NCBI GenBank assembly: GCA_964400125.1
Contig: CAYNSR010000004.1
Span: 99,391-163,390, forward strand
DNA from: an uncultured Micavibrio sp.
GTDB lineage: Bacteria; Pseudomonadota; Alphaproteobacteria; Micavibrionales; Micavibrionaceae
Direction: 5' to 3'
DNA: 64,000 nt
Shown here in pieces: positions 22,250 to 34,462 of this stretch. The notes under the pieces were generated by a model that did not search any database, was not told where the DNA came from, and saw only the letters and a list, made by a program, of their open reading frames with translations. How positions within the stretch are numbered: the stretch's first letter is position 1; each line of letters opens with the position of its first letter. The translations under genes and the position numbers were made by a program.

Positions 22250-23463
22250 TTTACGGTGCCTGCCTTTTGCAGCTCTTCGATTTCAGGCCGGGACAGGCCG
22301 AGCAGGTCTTGGAGAATCTCGGCGGTATGTTGCCCTTCCATTGGTGGGGGCAGGCGATATTCAACGCTTGTGCCGGATAGTTTCAACGGGCTTCCGACCA
22401 GATCGATCGGGGTCGGGCTTTGCGGGTGAGGCATGCGGATTTGCATTTGTCTCGCATGAATCTGGTCGAGCGCGAAAACCTGATCCATGCGGTTGACTGG
22501 CCCGCAGGGTACGTCGATATCGCGCATCAGATCGACCAGTGGCACAATTTTGTGCTGCATCATGATTTCGGCAATCATCGGAACAATGATATCGCGGTTA
22601 TGCACCCGTGCGGTGTTGGTCGCAAAGCGGGGGTCGTTTGCCCATTCTTCATGGCCGAGAGATTTGACGAATCTCCGGAATTGTACGTCGTTGCCGATGG
22701 CGATCACGACCCAGCCATCGGCGACTTCGAACGCCTGATAGGGCACGATGGTTGAATGGGCGTTGCCGTAGCGCGGTGCGGGTTTCCCCGCAGTCAGGAA
22801 AAACTGCGCCAGATTGGTCAGGCTGGCCAGCGTACAATCCAGCAGCGCCACATCGACATGCTGTCCTTGGCCGGAGTTTTTGCGGGCGTGCAATGCCGCA
22901 AGGATGCCGATGGCGGCGTAAAGCCCGGTCATGACGTCGCTCAACGCTACACCGACCTTCATCGGCGCGCCGTCGGGTTCGCCGGTTACGGCCATCAAGC
23001 CCCCCATGGCCTGTACCAGCAGGTCATACCCGGGTTCGGTGGACAGGGGGCCGTTCTGGCCGAATCCCGTGATGGAGGCATAGATGATATGCGGATGTCT
23101 GGCATGGATGCTGTCGTAATCCAGCCCGTATTTCTTTAACCCCCCGGTTTTGAAATTTTCAATCAGGATATCCGATTTTTCCAGCAGCCGATGGACAAGG
23201 TCCTGCCCTTCCGGTGTAGTGATGTCGATGGCAATCGAGCGTTTGTTGCGGTTGCAGGACAGGTAATAGGCGCTTTCGCCTGTATCGTTGCCGTCAGCAT
23301 CTTTCAGAAAAGGGGGGCCCCATTTGCGCGTGTCGTCTCCGGCACCGGGGCGTTCGACCTTGATGATGTCGGCCCCCATGTCGCCAAGAATCTGGGTGCA
23401 GGCCGGACCGGCCAGAACCCGCGACAAATCCAGTACCCGTAATCCGCTTAATGCGCCGCTCAT
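22246..23463 (-). CDS. CoA-transferase family III protein (CaiB/BaiF-like)
   Basis: N-terminal LSGLRVLDLSRVLAGPACTQILGDMGADIIKVE signature. Confidence 0.85.
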   Translation of the reverse strand: MSGALSGLRVLDLSRVLAGPACTQILGDMGADIIKVERPGAGDDTRKWGPPFLKDADGNDTGESAYYLSCNRNKRSIAIDITTPEGQDLVHRLLEKSDILIENFKTGGLKKYGLDYDSIHARHPHIIYASITGFGQNGPLSTEPGYDLLVQAMGGLMAVTGEPDGAPMKVGVALSDVMTGLYAAIGILAALHARKNSGQGQHVDVALLDCTLASLTNLAQFFLTAGKPAPRYGNAHSTIVPYQAFEVADGWVVIAIGNDVQFRRFVKSLGHEEWANDPRFATNTARVHNRDIIVPMIAEIMMQHKIVPLVDLMRDIDVPCGPVNRMDQVFALDQIHARQMQIRMPHPQSPTPIDLVGSPLKLSGTSVEYRLPPPMEGQHTAEILQDLLGLSRPEIEELQKAGTVK

Positions 23464-23972
23464 CCGATCACCGTTGCAATGCTGGAAAACTTATAGAGTG
23501 CGACCAGAGCAATTCCAACCGCGAAACCGGGTCCGGCGGGAACTTCCAGCCGGGACAGGCTGAACGGCGCTTTTCTGGTAAATGTCTGTATCAGGGCGGT
23601 TCCGATCCCGTGGACCAGTCCGCCTGCAGCGCCAAGCGTCAGCGCCATCAGCACTCCTTCCGGCCCCAGCCACAGCCCCGCCGTCAGCATCAGCTTGACA
23701 TCTCCCAGCCCGAGCGTGTCTTGCTGGTAGATGTGGTTGGCGATAAAACGAATTCCATAAAGAATCCCTCCCCCGAGCATTGCCCCGAGTGCGATGTCGG
23801 GCAGACCCACAAAATGGAAGGTTGTTATGCTATGAAAAACAAGGGCGAGCAGGCCGAAGGGCAGGACCAGCCGATCCGGCAAAAGCCGCACACGCAGATC
23901 GATTATCGCCAATGCGATCAGAATTCCGGTGGCCGCGACGAGGCAGAGCAATGCAGGAATGAAGATGGTCAT
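23460..23972 (-). CDS. Short A24-family prepilin peptidase (CpaA/TadV-like, no methyltransferase domain)
   Basis: 170 aa polytopic protein with two Asp motifs, IIDLRVRLLPD and GLGDVKLM. Its stop overlaps the downstream CoA-transferase ATG (ATGA). Confidence 0.75.
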   Translation of the reverse strand: MTIFIPALLCLVAATGILIALAIIDLRVRLLPDRLVLPFGLLALVFHSITTFHFVGLPDIALGAMLGGGILYGIRFIANHIYQQDTLGLGDVKLMLTAGLWLGPEGVLMALTLGAAGGLVHGIGTALIQTFTRKAPFSLSRLEVPAGPGFAVGIALVALYKFSSIATVIG

Positions 23973-23994
23973 GCCCCAGTTGTGCCCCTTTTTG

Positions 23995-24008
23995 ATTGTA
24001 TATTCAAT
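23995..24008. promoter_or_regulatory. Imperfect 14-bp palindrome ATTGtATATtCAAT in the divergent peptidase/operon promoter region
   Basis: Read directly from the sequence. It lies in the 204-nt intergenic region between the divergent genes. Confidence 0.3.
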
Positions 24009-24176
24009 TGGGGTGTGGTGTTTTATACCAGCGGGATGTGTGGATAAAAGGCGTTTTTTGCCCCGAACGCCTTGTTCTGCCTTGCAAAGTGGTTTCAACT
24101 TTGAGGTCTGAGGCCTCCGCGCCTGCCTGTTCTGCAACCCAGTCCTTCTCGTGTGACCAGCCATTTCGAAAAATCA

Positions 24177-24551
24177 ATGACCGACGCCCCGAAAATCATG
24201 ATCGTTGAAGATAACGATTTCGTACGCATGCAGGTGGTCCGTTATCTGAAGGAGGCCGGATTTGAAACATGCGAGGCCAGAGACGGCAACGAGGCGTTGG
24301 AAGCTCTAGGTGTCGATGTGCGGGCGGCGATTGTGGATGTGCGCATGGAGCCGATGGGCGGGCTGGAATTTGTGCGCACCTTGCGGGGCAGGGAAATTGA
24401 TGTGCCGGTTGTTCTGATGACCGGAGACCAGAATACGGATCTGCTTGAGCAGGCCGCGAAGTGGGATGTAAGCGCTGTTTTGATAAAGCCGGTCATGAAG
24501 GATCGGCTGGTTCAGGCGGCGCAACGGGCGATTGCTCAGAGGCACCTGTAA
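24177..24551 (+). CDS. Single-domain response regulator (receiver only), first gene of the filament operon
   Basis: IVEDND, AIVDVRMEP (phospho-Asp) and LIKP. No output domain. Confidence 0.85.
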   Translation: MTDAPKIMIVEDNDFVRMQVVRYLKEAGFETCEARDGNEALEALGVDVRAAIVDVRMEPMGGLEFVRTLRGREIDVPVVLMTGDQNTDLLEQAAKWDVSAVLIKPVMKDRLVQAAQRAIAQRHL

Positions 24552-24590
24552 CAGGTTTGAAATGGGTTTGATGTGATGGGTTTGACGGGC

Positions 24591-26342
24591 ATGATCGATT
24601 CTGTAGAGCAAGGCGGTTTTCGCCGTCGCGCCATGCATGCCTTGCTGGCGGGCGTGATTTTACTGGCCGGTTGCGCTTCGGCGGATGTCCCGGATTCCAG
24701 AACGGTCAACGTTCCCGCGCCGACTCTGGCGGAAAAGCGGCGCGATGCCGTGAACGAGCGTCCTGACAGTGTGATGTATCTGCCGCTTGGCCGCGATGTT
24801 CTGTTGCCTGAAATCGCTACGGATGACGATTTGCCCACCGAGGAAGTCGGGCCGTTCGAACTGCGCGGCGAAACGCTGGCCGGGGCGTTGCAGTTGATCC
24901 TTGCCGATTACGATGTTCCGCTTTCTTTCGAAACGGACAAGGGACTGACCCGTCCCATTACCGTGGCCAATTTGCGCGGACCTTTGAACAAGGTCGTGCG
25001 GCACCTTTGCGGGCTGGCGGAGCTTTATTGCGCCTTTGAAGATGGAATTATGATTGTCAAGGATACGCAAACCTTCACCGTCAAGATCCCGCCGATCAGT
25101 CAGGATACGGGTTTTATGCAGAGCGTGGCGACGGGTTTGCAGGCGATCGTCGGGACGTCTCCCATCCTTGACACTTCGACGCGCACCATCATTTATGAAG
25201 CCTCGCAGCGAAACGCCGATATGGCGCTGCGTTATTTCCAGCGCATGCGCAGCAGTACGGCCCTGATCGTCTTTGAAACCTATATCTGGGAAGTTGCGCT
25301 GGACGGTGGAAATTCGACAGGCATCAACTGGCAGCTTCTTCAGTCGATCGGCAAGTTCAATACCGGAATTGAACTGACCGGATCAATCGGGGTCGGCGCG
25401 ACAGGCTCCTTCGCCAGCCCGGTCAGTATCGGTTTGCCTGTCACCGGAAGCATCAAAAATGCGGACGGCAGTTTCGGTGCGACGGAAGTATTTGATTTCC
25501 TGTCGCGCTTTGGTGCCGTGAAAACCATTTCCCAGCCGCAAATCACCGTTCTTTCGGGTTCGGAAGCGACGTTGCGCGCTGCGGATCGCACCAATTTTGT
25601 GTCCAATATATCGGAAACGCTGGATAACGGGCAGTCGAGTACCTCGGTCAGTACGGACTCTGTCGAAACCGGCTTTACCCTGACAATCGCCAGCGCTTGG
25701 GACAATGCAACCGTTTATGCCGATATCAGCATTTCTCTGACCGATGTGATTCAGATTGATGATTTTACCTTCTCCACAACCGGCGGGGGGTCTACGCAAA
25801 TCCAGTTGCCGCGTACGACCGAGCGCGAAGTCACGACGCAGGTTCGTATCCGTCCGGGCGATTCCCTGTTGCTGGCGGGGCTGGTGCGCGAGGACGACAA
25901 TTACCAGTCGACCGGACCGGGGCTTGACTCGCCCATCCTGCCGACCAGCCGCACGGCGGAAACATCGAATGTCGAGGTCGTTTTCCTGATGCGTCCGCGG
26001 GTTGTGGTCTACACGAATGCCGATGAGCAGACTCATCATCAGGGGGCGCGCACGCTGCCCGCAAAAACGCCTGCACACGCTCCGGCGGTGTTGCCGGATT
26101 CTGTTTCGCCCGTGCCGGAACCGGTTGAAGATATTCCGCCACAGGCAAGTCTGCCGCCAGTGCCCGTGACCCGCCCCGATGCAGCCGCGCCTGTATATTC
26201 CCAGCCATTGGCGGAGCCCGATTCCTCGGTGGAAATTGCGCCGCTGAATGAAAGCGTTCCGATGAATCTTGTGCCCGCAGAAATGCGTGCCGGAGATCAT
26301 GCCAGTACCCCATATGTCGCCAGACCAGTCCAGTTTCGCTAG
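24591..26342 (+). CDS. Outer-membrane secretin lipoprotein (T4b PilN/BfpB/TcpC-like) with Pro-rich C-terminal tail
   Basis: Lipobox LLAGC after an RRR n-region. Secretin C-domain AVKTISQPQITVLSGSEA...LPRTTEREVTTQVRIRPGDSLLLAGLV...EVVFLMRPRVV. Alternative starts at 24573, 24576 and 24633. Confidence 0.8.
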   Translation: MIDSVEQGGFRRRAMHALLAGVILLAGCASADVPDSRTVNVPAPTLAEKRRDAVNERPDSVMYLPLGRDVLLPEIATDDDLPTEEVGPFELRGETLAGALQLILADYDVPLSFETDKGLTRPITVANLRGPLNKVVRHLCGLAELYCAFEDGIMIVKDTQTFTVKIPPISQDTGFMQSVATGLQAIVGTSPILDTSTRTIIYEASQRNADMALRYFQRMRSSTALIVFETYIWEVALDGGNSTGINWQLLQSIGKFNTGIELTGSIGVGATGSFASPVSIGLPVTGSIKNADGSFGATEVFDFLSRFGAVKTISQPQITVLSGSEATLRAADRTNFVSNISETLDNGQSSTSVSTDSVETGFTLTIASAWDNATVYADISISLTDVIQIDDFTFSTTGGGSTQIQLPRTTEREVTTQVRIRPGDSLLLAGLVREDDNYQSTGPGLDSPILPTSRTAETSNVEVVFLMRPRVVVYTNADEQTHHQGARTLPAKTPAHAPAVLPDSVSPVPEPVEDIPPQASLPPVPVTRPDAAAPVYSQPLAEPDSSVEIAPLNESVPMNLVPAEMRAGDHASTPYVARPVQFR

Positions 26343-26354
26343 AGGTTTTGAATT

Positions 26355-27995
26355 TTGACGCGTTCGTTTGAAAACATGAGGTTCGCAGGGGCGCCGGAAA
26401 CTGGCGGCGGTTTGTTTCACGCCGCGCGGCGGCATGTTTTTGCGGCGTTTCTCGGGGTGGTTATCAGTCTGGTGTCGCCGTCGGACTCTTTCGCACAATC
26501 TGCTTTTGACGATCCCGGCGCGCGTGCGGGTGGAAAGGCCGGGTCCGTTGGCGATCTGGTCCCGACGCAGCCGTCCATCGATGCCGGGAATATCAGTGTC
26601 GGTGCGACCGCGCAGGTTGTCGTTCTGTTCCGCAATGACAGCGGACGGGCCCTGACGACCGGGGCGATCAATCTTTATCCGTCATCAACGGTTTCGGCGG
26701 CGGTCGCGCTCAACGAATGTCAGGATCTGGACCCTCTTCCGCCCGGTGCGGTGTGTGCCGTTGGCCTGTCGATCAAGGGGCTGCAATCGGGGCGCTGGCG
26801 GGTGGAAATGTTGATGCGGCATACCGGGACCACACGTCTGGTTACGGCCACGTTGCAGGGCAATATCGAAGATACCGATGCCGGCACGGGCAATACCTTC
26901 AAGAGCGATATCGAGGCGATTCCTTCGACCATGGATTTCGAAAAGCTGACCACCAGCCAGCCTGCTGTTCAGCCGGTCGTGTTGCGGAATATCACATCGA
27001 CGCCGATCGATATCGCCGCGATTTACGTTGAATCGGCGGAACAGGCCGGGTTCAGCTTCCGTACTGATTGTGAAAAACTCACCCCCGGTCAGGCCTGTAT
27101 CGTGACCATGATTTGGTCGCCGATCCTCAAGGGGCAGGCCACTGGCGTTTTGGTGGTCGAACACAACGGTCCGACCAGTGTGGCCAGTATCCCGTTATCC
27201 GGCGAATTCACGCCGACCGGGGTCAGTGTCGCGCAGACTTTCCCCGAGGCGGTTCCGGGCAAGGGGCTTTTGGTGTCTTCGCAGGACCGGATCGATTTCG
27301 GCTCCAGCATCGAGACGGCTTCGGCCATTACGGTTTCACTGGTCAATGTCGGCGATGCCGCCCTGACGATCGAGGATGTCAGTCTGGCCGGGTCCGACAG
27401 CGGGATTACGCTCAGCAAGTCCGGTTGCGTTCCGGGCATGGTTCTGGACCCGATTCAGGCCTGTCCCCTGACCCTGACATGGTCGCCTGTGCGGCAGGGT
27501 GCCATTCTGGATGATGTCCAGATCGTCCATAGCGGCGCACGGGGTATTCTGGTTATGCCCGTACGCGGTACGGCCAATGCAGTAGTGAACAAGGACAACA
27601 AGGCCATCCGTCTGGCGGATTCCGGTGCGACGGTTTCTCTGGAACCTGGCACGACCGCCACCGATTCCATCGCCAGAGAAATGATTGTCCGGGACAAGGA
27701 TGTAGACCCGACCGGGGTTCTTGACGGTTTTGCCGTAACATCACATTCCAGCAAACGGGCCATTATCACCGGTCCCGGCGGCAGCAGGATTGTTTTTGAC
27801 GGGGAAGAGGCGGTCATTGGCGGGTTCTTATGGAATGTAAAAATCCGCTCCAGCGGAGTCGAGTTCCAGACCGGCGACCGGAAGGTTCTCTTGCTGTTTG
27901 ACCGTTCGTTGAATACGCCATCTTCATCTTCTGTTAACCGAACTTCATCACAATCAACTGGTACTGCTGGTGCTGCCGCATCGGCTGGCCAGTAG
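26355..27995 (+). CDS. Periplasmic protein with 3 tandem Ig-like (ASH/choice-of-anchor-D-like) repeats, a PilP/GspC-HR-like C-terminal domain and a Ser/Thr/Ala tail
   Basis: Signal peptide ...VFAAFLGVVISLVSPSDSFA/QS. Three repeats of about 95 aa share DFG..V.L.N.G...L.I....C..L.PG..C.V...WSP...G....L.V.H.G. The C-terminus reads LDGFAVTSHSSKRAIITGPGGSRIVFDGEEAVIGGFLWNVKI. TTG start (alternative ATG at 26376). Confidence 0.6.
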   Translation: MTRSFENMRFAGAPETGGGLFHAARRHVFAAFLGVVISLVSPSDSFAQSAFDDPGARAGGKAGSVGDLVPTQPSIDAGNISVGATAQVVVLFRNDSGRALTTGAINLYPSSTVSAAVALNECQDLDPLPPGAVCAVGLSIKGLQSGRWRVEMLMRHTGTTRLVTATLQGNIEDTDAGTGNTFKSDIEAIPSTMDFEKLTTSQPAVQPVVLRNITSTPIDIAAIYVESAEQAGFSFRTDCEKLTPGQACIVTMIWSPILKGQATGVLVVEHNGPTSVASIPLSGEFTPTGVSVAQTFPEAVPGKGLLVSSQDRIDFGSSIETASAITVSLVNVGDAALTIEDVSLAGSDSGITLSKSGCVPGMVLDPIQACPLTLTWSPVRQGAILDDVQIVHSGARGILVMPVRGTANAVVNKDNKAIRLADSGATVSLEPGTTATDSIAREMIVRDKDVDPTGVLDGFAVTSHSSKRAIITGPGGSRIVFDGEEAVIGGFLWNVKIRSSGVEFQTGDRKVLLLFDRSLNTPSSSSVNRTSSQSTGTAGAAASAGQ

Positions 27996-28039
27996 GTCGT
28001 TCAATCAATTTCTGACGCAGTTTCACGGGGGCTCACTTC

Positions 28040-29869
28040 ATGAGCGACCAGGATTTTCCAGATGGACAGCATGAGGAGGCCAAGCCGGATCTGACGCCCG
28101 ATCGGCGTGGCGCGGTTGTACCTGATCGCCGGAAAAATCCAGCCGGAACCCCGCCCGACGGGATTGACCGCCGGGTTTGGGCCGACCGCCGCAAGGCCCG
28201 GTCGAATGAGGGGCGGGAGCGCTATCTGGACATGGTCCAGAAGGAACGCTCCGTACTCCTTGACCAGGGTGTTACCCGCTCCACGGAGCAGCTTTTAGAT
28301 CTTGCCGGGGTTGGCGGGACGTCCCACACGGAGGAAGAAGGCGTTCGTGATCGCGCAACCGGGGACCAGTTGCGCTCGATCCTCCCGGTCCAGTCATGGT
28401 TGCCGCTTTCAATTCACCTGATCGGTTTGAAAGACGGCATTTTGCGCATTGCCCCGTTGCATGAGCTGAATGACCGCCAGATCAAGGCGCTGTTGTCGAC
28501 ATCGGTGCGTTCCGGCCTTGTCGTTGACCGGGTCGAGGTCGAGGTCTGGGACCGTGCGGAATTGCTGTCGACGTTGCGTTCCGTGCATGATCTTTCGGCG
28601 GATCGCACGGAAAAAACCCTTGCCCAGTGGTTGGGGGATGTCGATAACGGTTTGCTCCTGAACCAGTTCCAGCGCGATATGATGGCCGAAGCGTTGCAGA
28701 TGCGGGCCTCTGATATTCATCTGTTGCAGGACAACAACCCCGAAACCCCAAACTGGATACGCTACCGGATCGATGGCGATGTTATCCCGATGCACCTGTT
28801 GCCTAACGATGCCATGGCGCGTTTGACGACGTTGCTCAAGCGCGATGCGGGGCTGAACTTCGGGGATCGTACGACGCCTAAGGACGGGCGTTTCTCCTTT
28901 ATCTGGCAGGGCCGGAACATCGACGTTCGTGTTGCTGCCGGGCCGCAGGCGCAAGACGGCGAAAAGCTGACGCTGCGTTTGCTTGACCGTGCCGCCCTCA
29001 AGGGATTTGACGAACTGTTCCGCCGTCACGAAGATGTCGGAAACTATCTTTCGCAGCTCCTGTCGCCGGAGATCAAGGGCGGGGGCGGGCTTATCCTGCT
29101 TTCCGGTCCGACGGGTTCGGGGAAAACGACGACGCTTTATGCCTGCGTCCAGCAGATCGACCGCCGCCGCCGCCATGTCCTGACCATTGAAGATCCAATC
29201 GAATATGAATTGCGTTATGCCACGCAATGGCAGGTGCGTTCTGGCATGCCGGGGGGGGAATTTTCTGACCTGATCCGCGCGGCCATGCGTCATGATCCGG
29301 ATTACATCATCATCGGGGAGATGCGGGACGGCGATACGGTCGAGACCGCCTTGCGCGCCGCAGAATCGGGACACACGGTGATTTCGACCATTCACGCCGA
29401 CACTGCGCTTCAGACATTCGAGCGCCTGCGGTCCCTGATGCCGGTCGCTCGGGAACGGTCATCGACATTCACGTTGGCGCAGCAGGTCAAGGCGATCATG
29501 AACCAGCGCCTGATTAAAACGCTGTGTCAGGGGTGTGCGCATAAATCGCGGGCGGCCGATGCCCTGGAGCCGCATGAATTGGCGATGCTGGGGATCGATC
29601 CGGATGCGGCAATCCGCCGTCGTAACACGACAGGCTGCGATCTTTGCAACCGGACGGGGATCATGGGGCGGACGCTGCTGCTCGATGCGGTCCTGATTCC
29701 GCTCGGGCCGTCGCAGCGCGATGCGGTCTATAATGCGATGATGCAAAACGTAAACCAGATTGTACACGAAGATGGCGTGATCGTTCATACGCGGCGGGAG
29801 GGACTGGTCGATCTGGTCCTGAGCGGCCTTGTCGATCCGAAATCTGCGTTGTCGAATCTTGAAGATTAA
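28040..29869 (+). CDS. GspE/PilB-family assembly ATPase with tetracysteine motif and an N-terminal DRR-repeat extension
   Basis: Walker A GPTGSGKTTT, Asp box LTIEDPIEYEL, Walker B DPDYIIIGEMRD, His box GHTVISTIHA and CQGC...CDLC. A T2SSE_N-like segment is present (LPLSIHLIGLKDGILRIAP). Confidence 0.9.
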   Translation: MSDQDFPDGQHEEAKPDLTPDRRGAVVPDRRKNPAGTPPDGIDRRVWADRRKARSNEGRERYLDMVQKERSVLLDQGVTRSTEQLLDLAGVGGTSHTEEEGVRDRATGDQLRSILPVQSWLPLSIHLIGLKDGILRIAPLHELNDRQIKALLSTSVRSGLVVDRVEVEVWDRAELLSTLRSVHDLSADRTEKTLAQWLGDVDNGLLLNQFQRDMMAEALQMRASDIHLLQDNNPETPNWIRYRIDGDVIPMHLLPNDAMARLTTLLKRDAGLNFGDRTTPKDGRFSFIWQGRNIDVRVAAGPQAQDGEKLTLRLLDRAALKGFDELFRRHEDVGNYLSQLLSPEIKGGGGLILLSGPTGSGKTTTLYACVQQIDRRRRHVLTIEDPIEYELRYATQWQVRSGMPGGEFSDLIRAAMRHDPDYIIIGEMRDGDTVETALRAAESGHTVISTIHADTALQTFERLRSLMPVARERSSTFTLAQQVKAIMNQRLIKTLCQGCAHKSRAADALEPHELAMLGIDPDAAIRRRNTTGCDLCNRTGIMGRTLLLDAVLIPLGPSQRDAVYNAMMQNVNQIVHEDGVIVHTRREGLVDLVLSGLVDPKSALSNLED

Positions 29870-29914
29870 GGCGCTAGATACCATAATGAATAAGCAGATG
29901 ATGGGATAGGCCCG

Positions 29915-31135
29915 GTGCAGCAGTGGATTGCCGAAATCGCGTATGAATCTTCCTCCGGCCCCCGCAGGGTGGTCGAGTCCTTTTACCTGCCCTCCGTCGA
30001 CGATGTCCGTATGGAAGTGGCAAAGAAGGGCGGCTACGCCCTGACCATCCGGCCCCACGAGCGTTCGCCCATTGAGCGTATCCTGTCGCGTTCGACCTGG
30101 TGGCAGGTGCAATTGTTGCGCGGAATCCAGTTTCGGTCGATATCCACCTCGCCCGGTGTGGCGTTGTGGCGGATCATTCAGGCTGAGACCAACCCGATGC
30201 GGCAGAATATTCTGGCCCCCGCGCGGGAGGCTCTGGCGCGCGGTCTTGGGGTGATTGACGCGCTGAAGGCGCTGAATGCCTTCGATCACAGCACGATTGC
30301 GATTCTGGCGGCCAGCGAGCGGTCGAACAAATTGCAAGAAGGTATCCCGCACGCGATTCATTCGATCACCCAGAAACGCCGGAACACGCGGGCGATCATC
30401 GGCACTATGTCATGGCTGGCTATTGACGTCGTTTCGATCGTTCAGTCGTTGTTCTGGGGGCGTGGCATGGTGCTGGAATGGTTCCATGACAATGCCCCGC
30501 CGGGCGCGGAGGAAAAAGAGAAATTCGACCGCGTGGTCGGAAATCTGGCGCTGACCTGGGATGTTTTGATTGCCACGGCCTTCGGGGCCGGGGCCTTTAT
30601 GGCGTGGGCGGTGTTTTCCTTCTGGATGAACAAAGGCAAGACGGATTGGCCGACGGCTCGCGTAGTACGGAAAATACCGATGTTCGGCGCGTATTTGCGC
30701 GATCTTGGCTTTGCCGATTCAATGATGGCGGCGGCGCGGATGATGCGCGGACTGGTCCCGATCAGCGATACGTTGCGCCAGTCTTCGGAAGCGACCAATG
30801 TGCCGGAGGTTTCGGCTTACTGGGAAGCTGCCAACAAGGAACTGGAAAACGGGGTCGGTCTCGGGGTGGCGCTGGATCGTTCTCCGCTGACCCGCAGCGA
30901 GCGGCTTGAACTGGCCAGCTTGTCTGATCTGGCGCAAGTTGCTACAGTATTGGAGTCTATTGCCGAAATGCGTGCATCCTCGGCAAAGACGAAGCACGCG
31001 CTGATCGTGTGGATTGCCTTCGGTCTCACCGGTGTCTACCTCGCCCTTGCCTTTGGTAGTGCCATTTACGCATTGACAGTTATGAATATGAGCATGGACG
31101 GCATGATGAGTGGTCTTATGGAAGGAGCACATTGA
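29915..31135 (+). CDS. Divergent GspF/PilC-like inner-membrane platform protein
   Basis: 406 aa with three hydrophobic segments and two internally similar helical regions (WWQVQLLRGIQF..., FADSMMAAARMMRGLVPISDTL). It sits directly after the ATPase. GTG start. Confidence 0.6.
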   Translation: MQQWIAEIAYESSSGPRRVVESFYLPSVDDVRMEVAKKGGYALTIRPHERSPIERILSRSTWWQVQLLRGIQFRSISTSPGVALWRIIQAETNPMRQNILAPAREALARGLGVIDALKALNAFDHSTIAILAASERSNKLQEGIPHAIHSITQKRRNTRAIIGTMSWLAIDVVSIVQSLFWGRGMVLEWFHDNAPPGAEEKEKFDRVVGNLALTWDVLIATAFGAGAFMAWAVFSFWMNKGKTDWPTARVVRKIPMFGAYLRDLGFADSMMAAARMMRGLVPISDTLRQSSEATNVPEVSAYWEAANKELENGVGLGVALDRSPLTRSERLELASLSDLAQVATVLESIAEMRASSAKTKHALIVWIAFGLTGVYLALAFGSAIYALTVMNMSMDGMMSGLMEGAH

Positions 31136-32142
31136 CTTTGGCTCTTTCCTTTAAAGACATGGGTCTGCCCGGGCGTAAAAAGAAAGGTGCCGAGGAGGAG
31201 CGTGCTGTCCGGGAGGGTGGTGCTGCTGCCGCGCCATCCAGACCCCGTCCCGGCATGGCGGATGTGATTGCCGGTGAGACGGCGAATTTTCAGGCCAATC
31301 TGACGCCTTATCTTCCTGCCGAGCTTATCGGTGGTTCCATTCCGCATATCCCGGGGACCGAGGATGAAGCCGTGTGGAACGCAGCGGCGCAGGCCTGCGC
31401 CACGGAAAAAGTGCATTACTGCTATTCCATCGAGGGTGGGCGTTGCTGGTATCTGGCGATTCCGTCCTCGGCGCTGGCATCGAACCCGGATAGCTGGTGC
31501 CCGCTTGCGGCGGCTTTGCCGGGGCATAGTGAATTCTGGGACAAGGAAACGGTTTACCTCTACGAGCAGGAAGGTGCCGCCGCCGCCCTGCGCTGGGACC
31601 CGGAAACGCACAGGATGCAGGTCTATATCGGCGCTTCGCGAACGCTATTGCCGCGAATCCAGAGCATGGATGCGAATTTCGTCACCATCAACCCGGATAT
31701 CGCCAATGTGATTCCTTGGCGGAACCGGGCTCTGCGCACCGAAAAATTGTCGCGGGCGGCGGCGCGAACCCTGTTGCTTGCGGGGCTGGGGCTGACGACG
31801 ATTATCCTGTGCATTCTTTTTGCACAATATGGCTGGACACTGATGCTGAAGCGGGACCTGCAAAAGGTGAGGGACGCGACGGACAAGGCCTCCAACGATC
31901 TGATGATTAATGCCTATAACGCCCTGCAAAGCGATACGATCAAGCACATGGTGAAAATTCAGGATCTGCTGGATACGTTGCGCACCATCGAGGGGACTTT
32001 GGTCAAATACGAAGTCGTCAAGGGCAAGACGACATGGGTGGCTCTGGTGCCGAAATCTTTCAGCGGCGGGGTCGGCGTGGTCAGGGGTGAAATTTCACCG
32101 GTGATCGAAAAAGACGGGCGGGTCAAGCTGACAGGGCATTAA
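31132..32142 (+). CDS. Orphan bitopic membrane protein in the GspL/BfpC/PilM-N position (cytoplasmic domain of about 205 aa, TM, periplasmic coiled-coil plus small domain)
   Basis: One TM segment (LLLAGLGLTTIILCILFAQYGW). TTG start 5 nt after GGAAGGAG, overlapping the previous stop (TTGA). No recognisable motif, so the call rests on topology and gene order. Confidence 0.4.
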   Translation: MTLALSFKDMGLPGRKKKGAEEERAVREGGAAAAPSRPRPGMADVIAGETANFQANLTPYLPAELIGGSIPHIPGTEDEAVWNAAAQACATEKVHYCYSIEGGRCWYLAIPSSALASNPDSWCPLAAALPGHSEFWDKETVYLYEQEGAAAALRWDPETHRMQVYIGASRTLLPRIQSMDANFVTINPDIANVIPWRNRALRTEKLSRAAARTLLLAGLGLTTIILCILFAQYGWTLMLKRDLQKVRDATDKASNDLMINAYNALQSDTIKHMVKIQDLLDTLRTIEGTLVKYEVVKGKTTWVALVPKSFSGGVGVVRGEISPVIEKDGRVKLTGH

Positions 32143-32268
32143 AAAGCGGAAAAATCTGCGCAGTTTGTTGATTTAGCTTAATTTTTATTGAATTTTTAGG
32201 GGCCTTTAAAGGATTGGATGATATGCTGGGAGTGCTGAAGCGCCTTTCGGGGAAAACGGGGTTGTATC

Positions 32269-32805
32269 GTGGACTTTAAATCTTTTGACATGAGATCTGT
32301 GCAGAAATATCTCCAGCCTCAGGCGGCCGAGGATCTCAATGTCTTTCTCGAGCGCCTGCCGCAAACGGCGGGCAACAGCATTCTGATCGCGGCGGCGATT
32401 GCGTGGACGGCGGCGGCGGCACTTGGCCTTTATACCTTTGTGCAAACCCAGCAGATGATCGAATTGCGCGCCAAACTGAAAGATACCGCAGCGCTTCAGC
32501 CACTGGTCCCAAAAATCACCGATGTTGCGGTGAAGGCGGACGAGGTAACGAAATTTGCCAAGGAGTTGTCGGAAATTTATCGCGGCCTCAGCATCAAGTC
32601 CCAAGGATCGACCATCCAGATTTCGGCGGCAGATACGGCGCGCTTTGCCGAATTCCGCGAGGCGATCGGGCATGTGCAAAACGGCGGATCGGGCTGGCGG
32701 GTGAGCGTCGAGCGTCTTTGCGTCGGCCGCGAATGCGACCGGGAAAAGCTGGCAGCATTACTGAAAATCAACAAGGTTTCCGTGGACAGGCCCGAAATGC
32801 AATAA
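32269..32805 (+). CDS. Orphan small bitopic membrane protein in the GspM/PilO position
   Basis: Short cytoplasmic N-terminus, a TM segment (ILIAAAIAWTAAAALGLYTFV), a coiled-coil and a small alpha/beta region. GTG start (alternative ATG at 32290). Confidence 0.35.
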   Translation: MDFKSFDMRSVQKYLQPQAAEDLNVFLERLPQTAGNSILIAAAIAWTAAAALGLYTFVQTQQMIELRAKLKDTAALQPLVPKITDVAVKADEVTKFAKELSEIYRGLSIKSQGSTIQISAADTARFAEFREAIGHVQNGGSGWRVSVERLCVGRECDREKLAALLKINKVSVDRPEMQ

Positions 32806-32879
32806 TAGGGTAGTTCGAGAATCGAAAAAAACGCATAATGGAACGCTTTTTAAAATCAGGCAATCGAAGGAGAATACGA

Positions 32880-33623
32880 ATGACGGTAGTAGTAAAGGAA
32901 AGATCGGGGGAACGGGGGAATGTGCTGTTCCTGATCCTGATCGCGGTGGCGCTGTTTGCGGCCCTGTCCTACGCGGTGACGCAATCGACGCGTTCCGGTT
33001 CTGGCGATGCCTCGAGCGAGACCAGTTTGATCAATTCCGCCCAGTTGGCCCAATATCCGGCCGGTGTCCGGACGGCGGTGGTGCGTATGGTGATTGGCGG
33101 AACTTCGGTTGACAACCTGATTTTCGATGCCCCTGCCAATTTTTCCGCGATTTCTGATTTGACCTATAACGTCTTCCACCCGACGGGCGGCGGCGCGGTT
33201 TTTCAGGTTGCGCCTAAGGATTTGCTGGCGCCGGGTGAGACAGGCGAATGGATTTATTCCTCCCGTTACCAGATTGACGGTATCGGCATCACTGATAGTG
33301 CGCAGCTTAGCGGCAATGAAGTGATCGCCTTCCTGCCGGGGGTTTCGCGGGATGTTTGCAGGAAACTCAACAGTGAGGTCGGCATTACCAGTTCGAACGC
33401 TGACGGGGTGCCGGTAACGACCGATCTTGGCGCTGATCCGCCCACCGCAGCACCAGTGAACACCGAAGGCATGACAGAGGCAGCGCCGGGCGCTCCCGGG
33501 ATCGGGGCCTATATCGCCACGATCGGCGGCGGACTGGCGGGCCAGCCCTTTGGATGCTTCAGGGTTGGTGCTGTGGGGCCGACGGCAACCTATGTTTACT
33601 ATCACGTTCTTGTCGAGCGTTAG
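32880..33623 (+). CDS. Pilin-like protein 1 with GspK/PilX-type leader (ERG|NVLFLILIAVALFAAL), no Glu5
   Basis: The leader MTVVVKERSGERG has a positive charge and is followed by a 20-aa hydrophobic helix. There is a strong SD (GAAGGAGA) before the ATG, and two Cys in the C-terminal half. 247 aa. Confidence 0.55.
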   Translation: MTVVVKERSGERGNVLFLILIAVALFAALSYAVTQSTRSGSGDASSETSLINSAQLAQYPAGVRTAVVRMVIGGTSVDNLIFDAPANFSAISDLTYNVFHPTGGGAVFQVAPKDLLAPGETGEWIYSSRYQIDGIGITDSAQLSGNEVIAFLPGVSRDVCRKLNSEVGITSSNADGVPVTTDLGADPPTAAPVNTEGMTEAAPGAPGIGAYIATIGGGLAGQPFGCFRVGAVGPTATYVYYHVLVER

Positions 33624-33656
33624 TTCCAGCACGCGCGATTGCCTGAAGAATAAGCG

Positions 33657-33690
33657 GAGGCCTGATGCGTGAAAGACCGCATCGGGCCTC
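33657..33690 (+). promoter_or_regulatory. 13-bp stem-loop between the two pilin-like genes (possible attenuator or processing site)
   Basis: GAGGCCTGATGCG-tgaaagac-CGCATCGGGCCTC has one G-U pair. No T-run follows it. Confidence 0.45.
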
Positions 33691-33718
33691 TTGCCCGGTG
33701 AAGAAAGATGATAAAGCG

Positions 33719-34462
33719 ATGTCTCTATATCGGCGGACAAACGAGCGCGGCAGCGCACTGGTCTATATCCTGATTGCCATTGCCTTGCTGGCGGCGTTGA
33801 CGGTGAGTTTTATGGAGCCGGCCAGTCAGCAGACGCAGAGCCAGAACAGTTTCAAGATGGTCTCGGAATTCGAAGCCCAGATCGACTTTATCCGCACGGC
33901 CGTTCAGGAATGCGTGATCCTGTACCAGATGGGGGATAACGGCATTGACAGCACCGCTGGTGGTGCTGTGACCCTGACCGAGGGTGCGAACAAGAAATTT
34001 CCGATTGATCCACGCTCCAGCTACCTGACCAATCCCTCGGCCAGTGCGGACCCGCTGGTGCGCGAGTTGCGTTGTCCGGGCAACCCCGGCGACAACGCCG
34101 ACCACCAGCCGGTTTTTTCAGGCAGTTCGGGGAAATTTCTGGGCCCGCCCCCTGCGATGTTCGAGGAATGGCGCTGGTATAACGGTCTCGATGGCATTTT
34201 CTTCTGGACGTATACGCTCAATACCGATGCGTTCATCCAGACATCCATGGACAAGCTGAATGAGAGTTTTGGCCTGTGCGAGGCCGATGTTGTCCGCGCG
34301 GGGGCTATCAGTATGGATATGGACAATGCTGGGGATGTGGTTTGCCCGGCGAATGCGACGTGTTTCCGTTTGTGGATGTCGGTAGATAATGAAACCGTCG
34401 CCGATCTGGAGGAATCACTCTACCCCGACCCCAGTCCCGCCGAGGCGGGGAATTGCCCGTGA
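33719..34462 (+). CDS. Pilin-like protein 2 with GspK/PilX-type leader (NERG|SALVYILIAIALLAAL), no Glu5, Cys-rich
   Basis: The N-terminal architecture matches the upstream gene and the predicted length is identical (247 aa). 7 Cys in the globular part. Confidence 0.55.
   Translation: MSLYRRTNERGSALVYILIAIALLAALTVSFMEPASQQTQSQNSFKMVSEFEAQIDFIRTAVQECVILYQMGDNGIDSTAGGAVTLTEGANKKFPIDPRSSYLTNPSASADPLVRELRCPGNPGDNADHQPVFSGSSGKFLGPPPAMFEEWRWYNGLDGIFFWTYTLNTDAFIQTSMDKLNESFGLCEADVVRAGAISMDMDNAGDVVCPANATCFRLWMSVDNETVADLEESLYPDPSPAEAGNCP

Follow-up and report, generated by a model that had tools for sequence, protein, structure and literature searches.

A conserved ten-gene cluster of an uncultured Micavibrio as a candidate unnamed lineage of type IV filament machines

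Gene content and conservation of the cluster

The window analysed here, a stretch of 64,000 nucleotides from an uncultured Micavibrio sp., carries between positions 23460 and 34462 a short A24 peptidase gene and, divergent from it, nine co-directional genes. An ORF check located all ten where a preliminary description of this DNA had placed them, with gaps of 21, 12, 44, 45, -4 (an overlap), 126, 32 and 41 nt between the nine plus-strand genes. The features of the locus, including a neighbouring kinase gene, are as follows.

23460 to 23972 (longest ORF to 24164), minus strand: short prepilin peptidase of about 170 aa, A24 domain only (PF01478)
24153 to 24551 (alternative ATG at 24177), plus strand: CheY-like single-domain response-regulator receiver (PF00072 at 5.5e-21)
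24573 to 26342, plus strand: lipoprotein secretin with a Pro-rich C-terminal tail of variable length (PF00263)
26355 to 27995, plus strand: Sec-exported periplasmic ASH protein of 546 aa with about three Ig-like domains (ASH, choice-of-anchor-D)
28040 to 29869, plus strand: assembly ATPase of GspE/PilB type, with a tetracysteine motif and an N-terminal extension rich in Arg (PF00437)
29915 to 31135, plus strand: single, highly divergent PilC/GspF-type platform (PF00482)
31132 to 32142, plus strand: p7, bitopic inner-membrane protein (topology; no family match)
32269 to 32805, plus strand: p8, small bitopic membrane protein (topology; no family match)
32838 to 33623 (database gene call from 32880, 247 aa), plus strand: p9, pilin-like protein without Glu5 (N-terminus, AF2 model)
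33665 to 34462 (possible start at 33719), plus strand: p10, Cys-rich second pilin-like protein, likewise without Glu5 (N-terminus)
34473 to 36761, minus strand, convergent: cytoplasmic hybrid histidine kinase, HisKA-HATPase-REC-REC-Hpt (Pfam domains)

Five of the plus-strand genes encode recognisable families (receiver, secretin, ASH protein, ATPase and platform), and p7 to p10 have no match at gathering or equivalog level in Pfam or NCBIfam, Pil and Gsp models included, nor one to a solved structure among PDB sequences. Five genes had earlier been described as having no recognisable motifs or only N-terminal ones; only four lack a recognisable domain, since the receiver (PF00072) and the 546-aa ASH protein are now recognised. 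The four hallmark components proposed at that time, A24 peptidase, secretin, T2SSE and T2SSF, all pass their Pfam gathering scores, and conserved motifs are present in peptidase, secretin and ATPase. No tRNA was found in the window, the flanking genes tested include neither an integrase nor a transposase, and composition shows no break at the cluster; together with synteny in Micavibrionales, this agrees with the native chromosomal position already suspected.

The arrangement is conserved far beyond chance. Of 80 Micavibrionales species loci, 55 contain all ten genes in identical order and on identical strands; these are the complete loci, those long enough, and the order is thus identical in 55 of 55. 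The other 25 comprise 24 loci interrupted by contig ends and one, L020, in which the peptidase, receiver and secretin were not seen within sufficient flank. L020 excepted, the peptidase is syntenic in each locus with sufficient upstream flank, as is the receiver in Micavibrionales. A relative of the platform occurs in 209 species genomes. The order secretin, partner, ATPase, platform, p7, p8, pilin-like protein also occurs in distant alphaproteobacterial MAG contigs, and the core gene order likewise on a conjugative plasmid of Rhodoferax ferrireducens T118. The gene-neighbourhood survey envisaged earlier hence reveals conserved order in Micavibrionales, in MAGs and on the Rhodoferax plasmid.

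The cluster is already contained in the published ARL-13 genome, unanalysed, as GMV_1929-1939, with most genes annotated as hypothetical. The p9 orthologue GMV_1931 is the highest-expressed cluster gene in ARL-13 (9.9 to 53.8), and during the attachment phase expression is raised for most genes of the cluster. As many genes throughout the ARL-13 genome are up-regulated in that phase, this rise supports a role in predation only weakly.

Components of the putative machine

The peptidase scores 61.9 bits against the Peptidase_A24 cut-off of 26.5 (9e-17). It is about 170 aa long if Met65 in the ORF of 234 aa is the start; GMV_1939, its orthologue in ARL-13, measures 507 bp. Both Asp motifs, IDLR..LLPD and LGLGDVKL, are conserved in 64 orthologues, and Pfam places no methyltransferase domain in the protein. 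It had been called Tad/CpaA-like, which holds for the short form lacking the methyltransferase domain. A specific likeness to Tad does not hold, as the canonical alphaproteobacterial T2SS of Marinovum pMaD2 likewise possesses a short PulO of 148 aa. The peptidase is likely dedicated to the cluster, since the two further type IV filament (TFF) loci of ARL-13 each carry a peptidase of their own.

The ATPase matches Pfam T2SSE with 265.7 bits (cut-off 24.9; 6.4e-79). Its NCBIfam scores are far lower than required for GspE (231.7, cut-off 630) or PilB (228.6, cut-off 676), and among PDB sequences its bit scores decrease from EpsE (177) over PilB (156) to BfpD (83). Walker A and B, Asp and His boxes and the CQGC...CDLC motif are conserved across orthologues, which share a median identity of 78%; the T2SSE match and the cysteine motif agree with the zinc-finger GspE/PilB type assigned previously. 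The platform matches T2SSF in a single stretch with 30.0 bits (cut-off 25.2) and the NCBIfam GspF HMM with 30 (cut-off 424). Among 1.84 billion representatives it finds no more than 185 matches at E<=1e-3, and its identity is 71-92% over the best-matching 80 Micavibrionales species loci. As described before, the cluster contains one platform gene rather than a TadB/TadC pair, and no PilT-like retraction ATPase.

The secretin passes its Pfam model with 61.2 bits (cut-off 27.5; 1.2e-16). Its top NCBIfam models are MshL (96.8) and PilN-T4b (79.6), both below cut-off, and its sole PDB sequence match is BfpB (9.7e-13). The lipobox LLAGC, whose Cys is invariant across orthologues, bears out its reading as a lipoprotein. 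The ASH protein is recognised by ASH (1.9e-14), HYDIN_VesB Ig (1.4e-6) and choice_anchor_D (58 bits) and ends in a conserved beta domain, which weakly matches Rhodoferax hyp234 at the equivalent position. Its gene also lies directly 3' of the secretin gene in the MAG relatives, making the protein a probable secretin partner. The Sec-type signal peptide and lack of an anchor mean that it could also be cargo rather than part of the machine.

In p7, whose gene overlaps the platform gene by 4 nt, a conserved cytoplasmic domain is followed by a TM helix, a coiled coil and a small periplasmic beta domain. Its AF2 model is confident for the TM, coiled-coil and C-terminal domains and poor for the N-terminal domain, and a Foldseek search with it returned no match. 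Orthologues are present in the MAG clade and, by hhalign (98.4%), in Rhodoferax. p8 consists of a short N-terminus, a TM helix and a periplasmic domain of about 120 aa with a conserved CVGREC motif; it has syntenic orthologues in the MAG clade and weakly matches Rhodoferax hyp154. Comparison of both proteins with GspL/M, PilM/N/O, BfpC and MshJ yielded no detectable similarity. Their topology and position suggest a scaffold.

The receiver sequence displays the acidic pocket, phospho-acceptor Asp, Thr and Lys. The hybrid kinase adjoins the cluster in 48 of 55 complete Micavibrionales loci, and this conserved adjacency points at the kinase as the probable phosphodonor.

The pilin-like proteins p9 and p10

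The N-termini ExG↓NVLFLILIAVALFAALSYAVTQS of p9 (88 homologues) and ExG↓SALVYILIAIALLAALT of p10 (its orthologues) are invariant, and that of p10 is homologous to that of p9 (95%). These N-termini are 100% conserved, whereas identity in the globular parts is about 46-49%, a pattern unlike that of an ordinary signal peptide. p9 has homologues in the pilin-like genes found in the MAG clade (98.3%) and in Rhodoferax, and p10 has one in Rhodoferax hyp180 (98.1%). In p9/p10-type proteins of all three lineages, Gly(-1) is kept and Glu5 occurs in none; the Rhodoferax homologues possess a classic KG↓F site. Two to three Glu5-less paralogues are present per cluster.

A pilin-like fold is confidently predicted for p9 (AF2, pLDDT 89.6), with a long N-terminal helix (residues 12-72, kinked at 36-43) packed against a beta-sheet. 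Foldseek ranks the T4b pilins CofA and PilS on top without significance (E 0.24); of the structural checks put forward earlier, that on p9 thus supports the fold though not by a significant match. Pseudopilins have about 140 aa and T4b pilins are larger; p9, with about 230 aa once a leader at least 13 aa long is removed, is nearer to the latter in size and leader. Its two invariant Cys in the C-terminal part, C160 and C226 of the 247-aa form, are reminiscent of type IV pilins, whose C-terminal region is disulphide-bonded.

Glutamate-5 is almost universal in pilin-type subunits, and we know of no bacterial filament built from subunits without it. In bacterial filaments, docking and neutralisation of charge are believed to depend on this residue, and Glu5-less subunits normally just cap the tip (PMC10191384). 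Neither Flp nor a Glu5 pilin was found across the whole window; for the cluster itself, this agrees with the earlier description. p9 is likely the main filament subunit and p10 likely a minor or tip subunit.

Place among type IV filaments and proposed function

ATPase, platform and secretin from the Micavibrio cluster, the MAGs and the Rhodoferax plasmid group together and apart from MshE/G/L, GspE/F/D and BfpD/E/B, in trees with one reference per named class and no bootstrap support. The bit scores follow the same line. The ATPase reaches 252-376 to its relatives versus 193 to MshE, 189 to GspE and 102 to BfpD, the platform 89-191 versus at most 28 to references, and the secretin 192-213 versus at most 48. 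All NCBIfam equivalogs for T2SS, T4aP, T4bP, MSH and Tad remain far below cut-off in the cluster, while the scores of a genuine MSH locus taken as control are higher by a factor of two to ten (MshL 279, passing its cut-off; MshE 524-526; MshG 330). The view of a machine outside the textbook classes is hereby strengthened. Its "chimeric part list" is better taken for that of a separate lineage, as the three markers share one set of relatives. Judged from sequence, the cluster is a real, uncharacterised and so far unnamed lineage of the type IV filament superfamily.

Several other readings deserve weighing. A functional T2SS, in which a short periplasmic pseudopilus drives hydrolases and toxins out via the secretin during feeding and no surface pilus is formed, is possible though doubtful. 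It fits an ATPase nearest to GspE among solved structures and plasmid matches, the lack of a retraction ATPase in the cluster, an ARL-13 annotation table without "general secretion pathway" genes (its other two TFF loci resemble Tad and T4aP pili), the attachment-phase rise of secretion genes, and a very high conservation of ATPase (78%) and platform (75%), such as an essential pathway would show. A T2SS without GspC/G/H/K was also what Wang et al. 2011 assumed. However, neither a GspG-like Glu5 pseudopilin nor GspC/L/M/H/I/J was found by any test, consistent with the reported lack of a GspC/G/H/I/J set. Moreover, the secretin belongs with the lipoprotein secretins BfpB/MshL, GspD being unmatched in the PDB, and p9 is nearer in size and leader to T4b pilins. 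The giant accessory proteins of relatives (one pilin-like, in L092) and the conjugative plasmid location suggest an adhesive filament. The two functions are not mutually exclusive, as T4b pili such as TCP export proteins too. A divergent T4bP or MSH system, with the orphans as fast-evolving PilO, PilP, BfpC or MshI-J equivalents, would account for the secretin's best models and sole PDB match and for a gene order (secretin, x, ATPase, platform) matching bfpB-C-U-D-E, and T4bP accessory genes are poorly conserved. We regard it as improbable: BfpD is a distant match of the ATPase (83-102 bits), which is no nearer to MshE than to GspE, the platform is scarcely recognisable to MshG, GspF or BfpE, the MshEN motif, MshI/J/K/M/N and a Glu5 T4b pilin were not found in the cluster, and each of the three markers falls with its own relatives.

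For p9 and p10 themselves, it is likewise possible, though doubtful, that both are GspK-like caps or minor pilins of a canonical Glu5 prepilin encoded elsewhere. Known Glu5-less subunits are tip caps, the p10 N-terminus weakly matches GspK (NCBIfam), unlinked genes annotated as "prepilin-type cleavage/methylation" number at least seven in ARL-13 (GMV_212, 742-744, 902-903, 1530), and in two MAG relatives a gene for a canonical pilin (GFTLIE/GFTLME) lies divergent to that of the secretin. Yet the NCBI annotation of the unlinked prepilins includes methylation, for which the cluster peptidase has no domain; in most relatives the canonical pilin does not lie next to the cluster, and the inspected part of the Rhodoferax plasmid contains none. 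Of the pilin-like genes, the p9 type alone is kept in all lineages, p9 is the cluster's most expressed gene, and two to three Glu5-less paralogues contrast with one cap in known systems. Still less probable is that p9 and p10 are no pilins at all but Sec-exported or signal-anchored periplasmic components, or cargo. A-x-A-like motifs end the hydrophobic segment in all three lineages (SYA↓V, AIA↓A, AIA↓N), so signal peptidase I could cleave instead; Glu5 is missing, and neither a pilin HMM (Pfam, NCBIfam) nor a significant structural match was obtained. Against this stand the invariant N-terminal segment ahead of a diverging remainder, the Gly directly before the hydrophobic stretch, a dedicated prepilin peptidase with no other substrate visible in the cluster, the helix-on-sheet architecture and the two invariant cysteines of p9.

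We favour, as the probable explanation, a distinct unnamed lineage of filament machine that would work without Glu5 and at the prey interface. p9 and p10 would insert into the inner membrane via their invariant hydrophobic N-termini, and the A24 peptidase would cleave off the basic leaders directly behind the conserved Gly (ExG↓N in p9, ExG↓S in p10). N-methylation would not follow, because the peptidase has no methyltransferase domain. A hexameric ATPase may dock on the platform and the cytoplasmic domain of p7, with ATP hydrolysis pushing subunits from the membrane into a helical filament, mainly of p9 and with p10 as minor or tip subunit. p7 and p8 would provide the inner-membrane and periplasmic scaffold, and the ASH protein would lie beneath the secretin, the exit route of the filament; the cluster supplies no retraction ATPase. 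In Micavibrionales, the hybrid kinase probably switches the machine on via the receiver. Such a filament may serve attachment and possibly export between predator and prey, as do T4b pili. Since the machine fits no named class and its pilin-like subunits do not contain Glu5, the cluster is a testable candidate for the prey-contact apparatus of the bacterial predator Micavibrio.

Layout and conservation of the cluster

The cluster consists of a peptidase gene and, divergent from it, nine co-directional open reading frames that span 24153–34462 (+) with spacings of 21, 12, 44, 45, −4, 126, 32 and 41 nt, the 4-nt overlap being that of the platform gene and p7.

Genes of the cluster and its neighbours, with Pfam E-values where a domain was matched
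21323–23463 (−): pyrB / CoA-transferase, neighbour on one side of the cluster
23460–24164 (−): divergent ORF, Peptidase_A24 (PF01478, 9e-17)
24153–24551 (+): Response_reg, a CheY-like receiver (5.5e-21)
24573–26342 (+): secretin (1.2e-16)
26355–27995 (+): ASH / HYDIN-type Ig domains, here the ASH protein (1.9e-14 / 1.4e-6)
28040–29869 (+): T2SSE ATPase (6.4e-79)
29915–31135 (+): T2SSF platform (5.4e-7, single repeat)
31132–32142 (+): p7, 336 aa, family-less
32269–32805 (+): p8, 178 aa, family-less
32838–33623 (+): p9, 261 aa, family-less
33665–34462 (+): p10, 265 aa, family-less, end of the cluster
34473–36761 (−): convergent hybrid kinase HisKA-HATPase-REC-REC-Hpt, cytoplasmic, 762 aa (Pfam)
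36899–37909 (+): asd, neighbour on the other side of the cluster

The preliminary description of a compact type IV filament (TFF) machine is confirmed at this level, because the ORFs are in place and the motifs it named (the lipobox, the ATPase boxes, CxxC...CxxC and the two peptidase Asp motifs) are present and conserved in the orthologues. Among the five genes it regarded as motif-less, two carry recognisable domains (Response_reg and ASH/HYDIN-type Ig), while p7–p10 are indeed without a family. The locus also appears native to the chromosome, as had been proposed. Its flanks are housekeeping genes, pyrB and asd synteny is kept in most loci and neither a tRNA nor, among the flanking genes, an integrase is present; on these grounds a mobile island was rejected. 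The GC content is flat along the locus, the absence of tRNA genes extends to the whole 64-kb window, and the remaining genes of the window are of housekeeping type (aspS, rnd, topA, rnr, dprA, plsY, sdhA and the dcw cluster). A competence pilus tied to the nearby dprA was dropped because this adjacency is absent in relatives.

A sigma-70-like match and a terminator-like hairpin, both weak, lie in the only long gap of the operon, the 126 nt before p8 (32128–32159). Separate and higher expression of p8–p10 could be compatible with these features, which amount to a consensus match and no more. Two diguanylate cyclase genes lie at a distance on both sides (12819–14246 and 38628–39902), their products being one PleD-like protein (REC-REC-GGDEF) and one GGDEF protein; among the genes adjoining asd in the published Micavibrio aeruginosavorus genome ARL-13, no diguanylate cyclase is found.

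The platform is 84–92% identical to proteins named Micavibrio aeruginosavorus. Scanning one genome per species yields platform relatives in 209 genomes, and the best 80 of these 209 loci, which we examined, belong throughout to Micavibrio or Micavibrionales-type MAGs, with platform identities of 71–92%. Gene-neighbourhood conservation, suggested earlier as a check, speaks for the cluster: all ten genes occur in identical order and on identical strands in 55 of the 80 loci, contig ends interrupt 24 of the remaining 25, and the core order is also found in other MAGs and on a Rhodoferax plasmid. The sole deviant with full flanks, L020 (MAG contig CAZCIB010000015.1), has its ATPase and platform genes separated by ~1.1 kb of additional DNA, and upstream the peptidase, receiver and secretin are not detected. 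The hybrid kinase adjoins the cluster in 48 of the 55 complete loci. Median orthologue identity is highest for the ATPase (78%) and the platform (75%), followed by p7 (62%), p8 (58%), the secretin (56%), the ASH protein (52%), the peptidase and p10 (both 49%) and p9 (46%).

In ARL-13, the orthologues are GMV_1929–1939, 7 of 11 being labelled "hypothetical"; the same genome harbors a complete Tad locus (GMV_527–540) and a T4aP-like locus with two PilT genes (GMV_1530–1544), and both loci include an A24 peptidase of their own (PMC3189940 supplementary file 4). Wang et al. called a T2SS without GspC/G/H/K "likely functional" and say nothing further on the subject. We found no paper that analyses the cluster, and the supplements of Denise et al. 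2019 do not mention Micavibrio. The genes, those of ARL-13 included, are public but unstudied.

Machine core and comparison with named systems

The core components are assigned by Pfam. The ATPase scores 265.7 bits on PF00437 (cut-off 24.9) with conserved Walker A/B, Asp and His boxes, and the peptidase, with both Asp motifs, scores 61.9 bits on PF01478 (cut-off 26.5). The platform reaches 30.0 bits on PF00482 (cut-off 25.2) with one of the usual two repeats, and platforms of the same clade in relatives reach 37–68 bits, mostly in two stretches. Assignment to a named system is a different matter, since all NCBIfam equivalog scores for T2SS, T4aP, T4bP, MSH and Tad fall below their cut-offs, which supports the earlier statement that the cluster fits no textbook class.

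NCBIfam scores of the core proteins (bits, score / cut-off)
Secretin: MshL 96.8 / 250.2; PilN-T4b TIGR02520 79.6 / 287.65; GspD TIGR02517 42.5 / 351
ATPase: GspE TIGR02533 231.7 / 630; PilB 228.6 / 675.65; TadA-family 65.5 / 373.15
Platform: GspF TIGR02120 30.2 / 424; PilC 12.3 / 700

A genuine Aeromonas MSH locus, taken as control, gives 279 bits for MshL (which passes), 524–526 bits for MshE together with its MshEN motif, and 330 bits for MshG on the GspF model. These scores are much higher, which puts the cluster at a much greater distance from T2SS and T4aP than that of MSH. Among 1.84 billion representative proteins, just 185 match the platform at E ≤ 1e-3, and beyond two Micavibrionales clusters there are ~100 full-length relatives at 21–32% identity. 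Judged by sequence, the platform is a member of a small, deep T2SSF subfamily.

Type IVb pili include the R64 thin pilus and TCP besides the BFP of EPEC, and several features of the cluster resemble this group. Its secretin is a lipoprotein with a lipobox, and the T4b lipoprotein secretin BfpB is the sole solved secretin matched by sequence (9.7e-13), although the score on the PilN-T4b model stays under its cut-off. The local order of secretin, accessory gene(s), ATPase and platform is that of BFP, and the pilin-like subunits are large, carry a basic leader and vary at residue +1; structurally, p9 has its top matches, weak ones, in CofA and PilS. The R64 thin pilus is located on a conjugative plasmid, as is the Rhodoferax relative. 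However, the ATPase scores only 83–102 bits against BfpD, compared with 177–193 for GspE/MshE, and the BfpD score is below that for PilB too; among solved structures the order is EpsE (177 bits), PilF/PilB (~156), PilT (122) and BfpD (83). Furthermore, the platform does not match BfpE, the pilin-like proteins of the cluster have no Glu5 and a BfpF-like retraction ATPase is absent from the cluster. No similarity to cluster proteins was detected for BfpC/U/G, the minor pilins BfpI/J/K or BfpA.

The cluster resembles MSHA in that MshL is the best-scoring curated secretin model, the ATPase is GspE/PilB-like and there is a single platform gene. It differs in missing the MshL cut-off, in the absence of MshEN, in a platform score of 30 bits on the GspF model against 330 for true MshG, and in gene order; Aeromonas MshI/J/K/M/N and the Msh pilins find no cluster match by BLAST. 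The likeness to T2SS lies in an ATPase nearest to GspE/EpsE with a tetracysteine motif, in the absence of a retraction ATPase, in the GspK-style Glu5-less N-termini of p9 and p10, and in a short PulO-like peptidase that also occurs in one alphaproteobacterial T2SS. In contrast, the GspD/E/F models remain far under cut-off, the lipoprotein secretin is of another type, and the subunits are far larger than pseudopilins. A GspC/G/H/I/J set was not detected, in line with the preliminary description, and neither were GspL and GspM (zero Pfam or NCBIfam matches); the GspK model reaches 13 bits with a cut-off of 130. As for T4aP, the cluster has no PilQ and no PilM/N/O/P match, and PilB and PilC stay under cut-off. 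It also contains no second ATPase gene, in line with the reported lack of a PilT-like retraction ATPase.

With Tad the cluster shares a short A24 peptidase without a methyltransferase domain, which had been taken as a Tad/CpaA signature. This argument does not hold: on plasmid pMaD2 of Marinovum algicola (L096, 16020–16466), a canonical T2SS (GspC–M, GspO) comes with a PulO-type prepilin peptidase of just 148 aa, so that a short A24 peptidase does not single out Tad systems. Unlike Tad, the cluster leaves the TadA-family model under cut-off and has neither Flp, RcpA, CpaB nor TadE/F. A single platform gene stands in place of a TadB/TadC pair, and a Flp-sized ORF would not fit into the gaps, both as originally described.

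The N-terminal extension of the ATPase (28040–28220) looks disordered and holds Arg-rich repeats (PDRR...PDRRK...IDRR...ADRRK); it is Micavibrionales-specific, missing from the MAG and Rhodoferax relatives, and matches no family even at E ≤ 10. Because two GGDEF genes are present in the window, we searched for the MshEN c-di-GMP motif in the ATPase and found none, even at E ≤ 10. The secretin ends in a poorly conserved Pro-rich tail of ~100 aa (26040–26342), and the orthologous ORFs vary from 474 to 765 aa.

Family-less proteins and relatives outside Micavibrionales

In p7, a strongly conserved cytoplasmic part of ~170 aa leads through a TM helix and a coiled coil to a periplasmic domain of four strands. 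The p8 protein begins with a short stretch before its TM helix and exposes ~120 aa to the periplasm, as a domain that contains an invariant CVGREC motif. In topology the two are reminiscent of GspL/BfpC and GspM/PilO, without sequence, profile or structure support for homology. Pfam at E ≤ 10 gives no meaningful match for p7, p8 or p10, and one p7 orthologue has a sub-threshold ArlX match confined to the TM and coiled-coil region. Profile searches of p7–p10 and the ASH protein against the sequences of solved structures return chance-level matches only, and widening the p7 profile with distant orthologues brings no improvement. Foldseek finds no match for the p7 model, whose cytoplasmic domain is poorly modelled, probably because the alignment holds close homologues only. 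Low-sensitivity hhalign comparisons with single sequences are negative for BfpC, BfpA and MshJ and stay at a probability of ≤ 1.6% for Marinovum GspL/M/K/C. A PilN/PilO-like paralogy of p7 and p8 was also considered and rejected, as hhalign of one against the other shows none. We infer a scaffold role for p7 and p8. In the ASH protein, a Sec-type signal peptide precedes about three Ig-like domains, and the C-terminal domain is conserved; the partner gene at its position in relatives abuts or overlaps the secretin gene. We take the ASH protein for a partner of the secretin in the periplasm, but it could instead be cargo.

In both p9 and p10, the basic leader at the start is followed by an invariant Glu-x-Gly and then by a hydrophobic segment with 100% conservation across homologues, whose globular parts are only ~46–49% identical. 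The N-termini, ...ERG/NVLFLILIAVALFAALSYAVTQS in p9 and ...ERG/SALVYILIAIALLAALT in p10, are homologous to each other (hhalign 95%). The AlphaFold2 model of p9 (pLDDT 89.6) is pilin-like, with a helix at 12–72, kinked at 36–43, packed on a beta-sheet; two invariant Cys lie in the C-terminal part. For this model Foldseek ranks T4b pilins first (the CofA filament and crystal structures and PilS), at a non-significant E of 0.24, so that the proposed structure check gives a pilin-like fold for p9, without a significant match, and nothing for p7. In Pfam and NCBIfam, p7–p10 reach no PilM/N/O/P, Gsp or pilin model.

Contigs that encode distant platforms, two of which NCBI assigns by name to an Alphaproteobacteria MAG and a Proteobacteria MAG, display the same order of lipoprotein secretin, Sec-exported partner, ATPase, platform, p7, p8 and pilin-like gene(s). 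The only good plasmid match of the secretin lies on the conjugative plasmid NC_007901.1 of Rhodoferax ferrireducens T118 (RFER_RS22280–22340; MOBH/MPF_T; L098, record 156228–172194), next to a PRTRC system. There, the order is response regulator, two secretin paralogues, hyp234, ATPase, platform, hyp307, hyp154, PPIase, hyp215, hyp211, hyp180 and hyp1049, the p7–p10 homologues being annotated 'hypothetical protein'.

Correspondence of cluster proteins with the Rhodoferax plasmid
Secretin with secretin: BLAST 192 bits
ATPase with ATPase: 252 bits
Platform with platform: 89 bits
p7 with hyp307: hhalign 98.4%, E 7.8e-15
p8 with hyp154: weak, positional
p9 with hyp211 / hyp215: BLAST 3e-10
p10 with hyp180: hhalign 98.1%, E 1.2e-13
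ASH C-terminal domain with hyp234: weak, positional

The p9 protein also aligns with the MAG pilin-like genes (hhalign 98.3%, E 2e-14). The MAG and Rhodoferax clusters thus share the gene order of the Micavibrio cluster through Glu5-less pilin-like proteins of p9/p10 type, with homology backed for secretin, ATPase, platform, p7, p9 and p10, whereas they are without an adjacent peptidase, CheY-like receiver and hybrid kinase, which are additions specific to Micavibrionales. Rhodoferax differs further by its second secretin paralogue, the PPIase, a short partner without Ig-like domains and the 1049-aa accessory protein.

Neighbour-joining trees of ATPase, platform and secretin place Micavibrionales, MAGs and Rhodoferax together each time, apart from MshE/G/L, GspE/F/D and BfpD/E/B. 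Built with one reference per class and without support values, these trees argue for a separate lineage and do not prove its rank; to that extent the phylogenetic check bears on the cluster's placement. The part list had been called "chimeric". That it matches none of the named classes stands, but a separate unnamed TFF lineage describes it better, as ATPase, platform and secretin group with the same relatives. Sequence comparison supports the cluster as a real, separate and unnamed lineage of the TFF superfamily.

Several observations concern single relatives. In the Rhodoferax ATPase, an MshEN c-di-GMP motif scores below threshold (31.5 bits, cut-off 38), and the 1049-aa gene is followed by genes annotated as tail-fibre assembly protein, sulfotransferase and adenylyl-sulfate kinase. 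In the MAG locus L092 (10544–13657), two p9-like genes are followed by one for a protein of 1037 aa that starts in the pilin-like manner of the family, ESG/VIGGPVLWIIGILGVL; this protein shows a weak relationship with the 1049-aa protein (34% over 141 aa) and may be a giant minor pilin or adhesin. On the 925-kb replicon of Vibrio vulnificus FORC_036 (L099, record 426136–437246), a weak secretin match (21.5% identity) lies among hypothetical genes, in a run that ends with a T2SS/T4P ATPase and an F-family platform and has three tandem 179-aa genes in between. This is another unannotated TFF-like cluster of different arrangement.

Filament composition, function and significance

In those bacterial filaments that have been studied, the Glu5 of one subunit forms a pair with the N-terminal amine of the next, and the tip cap alone is without Glu5 (PMC10191384). 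Glu at +5 is absent from p9, p10 and all MAG and Rhodoferax relatives compared, including the MAG-clade N-terminus DAG/IAIGPILFIIAVLGILAAAIAAG and the textbook prepilin sites of Rhodoferax (QKG/FINALIMFG..., KQAG/FMNALIMFG..., KQKG/FMLAYVMLM...); no canonical G-F-T-L-I-E motif occurs anywhere in the 64-kb window. One of two readings is that the filament of this lineage is assembled from Glu5-less subunits, in keeping with the lack of a methyltransferase domain in the peptidase. According to the other, p9 and p10 are cap subunits and the major pilin is encoded elsewhere. At least seven unlinked canonical prepilin genes in ARL-13 favor such a cap, as does a GFTLIE-type pilin on the upstream side of the secretin in two MAG relatives. 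One of these genes, in L082 (4351–4911, −; RQG/FTLIE), is divergent and directly abuts the secretin gene, where Micavibrio has peptidase and receiver; the other, in L088 (1705–2364, −; TRG/FTLME), is likewise divergent, with two ORFs in between. However, the p9 type is present in every lineage with two or three copies per cluster, and the ARL-13 p9 orthologue is the most expressed gene of its cluster (9.9 to 53.8, against 0–10.8 for the others), the expression columns being read as attack then attachment from the paper's statements on GMV_530 and housekeeping genes. These points count for a Glu5-less filament. Cleavage by signal peptidase I at the A-x-A-like motif that ends the hydrophobic segment of p9 and p10 is less likely.

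As to function, a T2SS-like role is suggested by the GspE affinity of the ATPase, by the cluster being without a retraction ATPase, by the lack of an annotated canonical T2SS in ARL-13, and by higher expression in the attachment phase. The secretin type, the large subunits, the giant accessory proteins of relatives (1037 aa in L092 and 1049 aa in Rhodoferax) and the fact that a conjugative plasmid carries one of the related clusters point instead at an adhesive, T4b-like pilus. T4b pili are able both to adhere and to export, and the two readings are therefore not exclusive. On the sequence data, we consider a non-retractile filament machine with p9 as main subunit to be fairly probable. That this machine acts at the prey interface is a more tentative proposal. 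The widest reading, which we regard as rather unlikely, would make the cluster the first recognised member of a family-rank TFF branch, with a Glu5-less, non-methylated filament of other docking chemistry serving as the organelle of the Micavibrio predator–prey junction. Such a branch would range over chromosomes of Micavibrionales and other Alphaproteobacteria plus a betaproteobacterial conjugative plasmid. If its filament consisted wholly of Glu5-less, non-methylated pilins, the docking chemistry would differ from that of all studied bacterial pili.

The main points are the consistent absence of Glu5 from the subunits and the presence of the cluster throughout Micavibrionales loci of sufficient length, with L020 deviating. 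This lineage is missed by current schemes (T2SS, T4aP, T4bP, MSH, Tad, Com) and by the NCBI naming models, and it provides a natural case for asking if bacterial type IV filaments can assemble at all when Glu5 is missing. As an experimental system, the Rhodoferax plasmid homologue may be more tractable than an obligate predator. Regarding the molecular means by which epibiotic predators such as Micavibrio hold and drain their prey, the reviews consulted name no apparatus. The cluster is a knock-out-ready candidate for this prey-contact apparatus, because each of the 80 Micavibrionales loci examined contains it and 209 species genomes have a platform relative, its ATPase and platform are unusually conserved, and it carries its own peptidase and phosphorelay.
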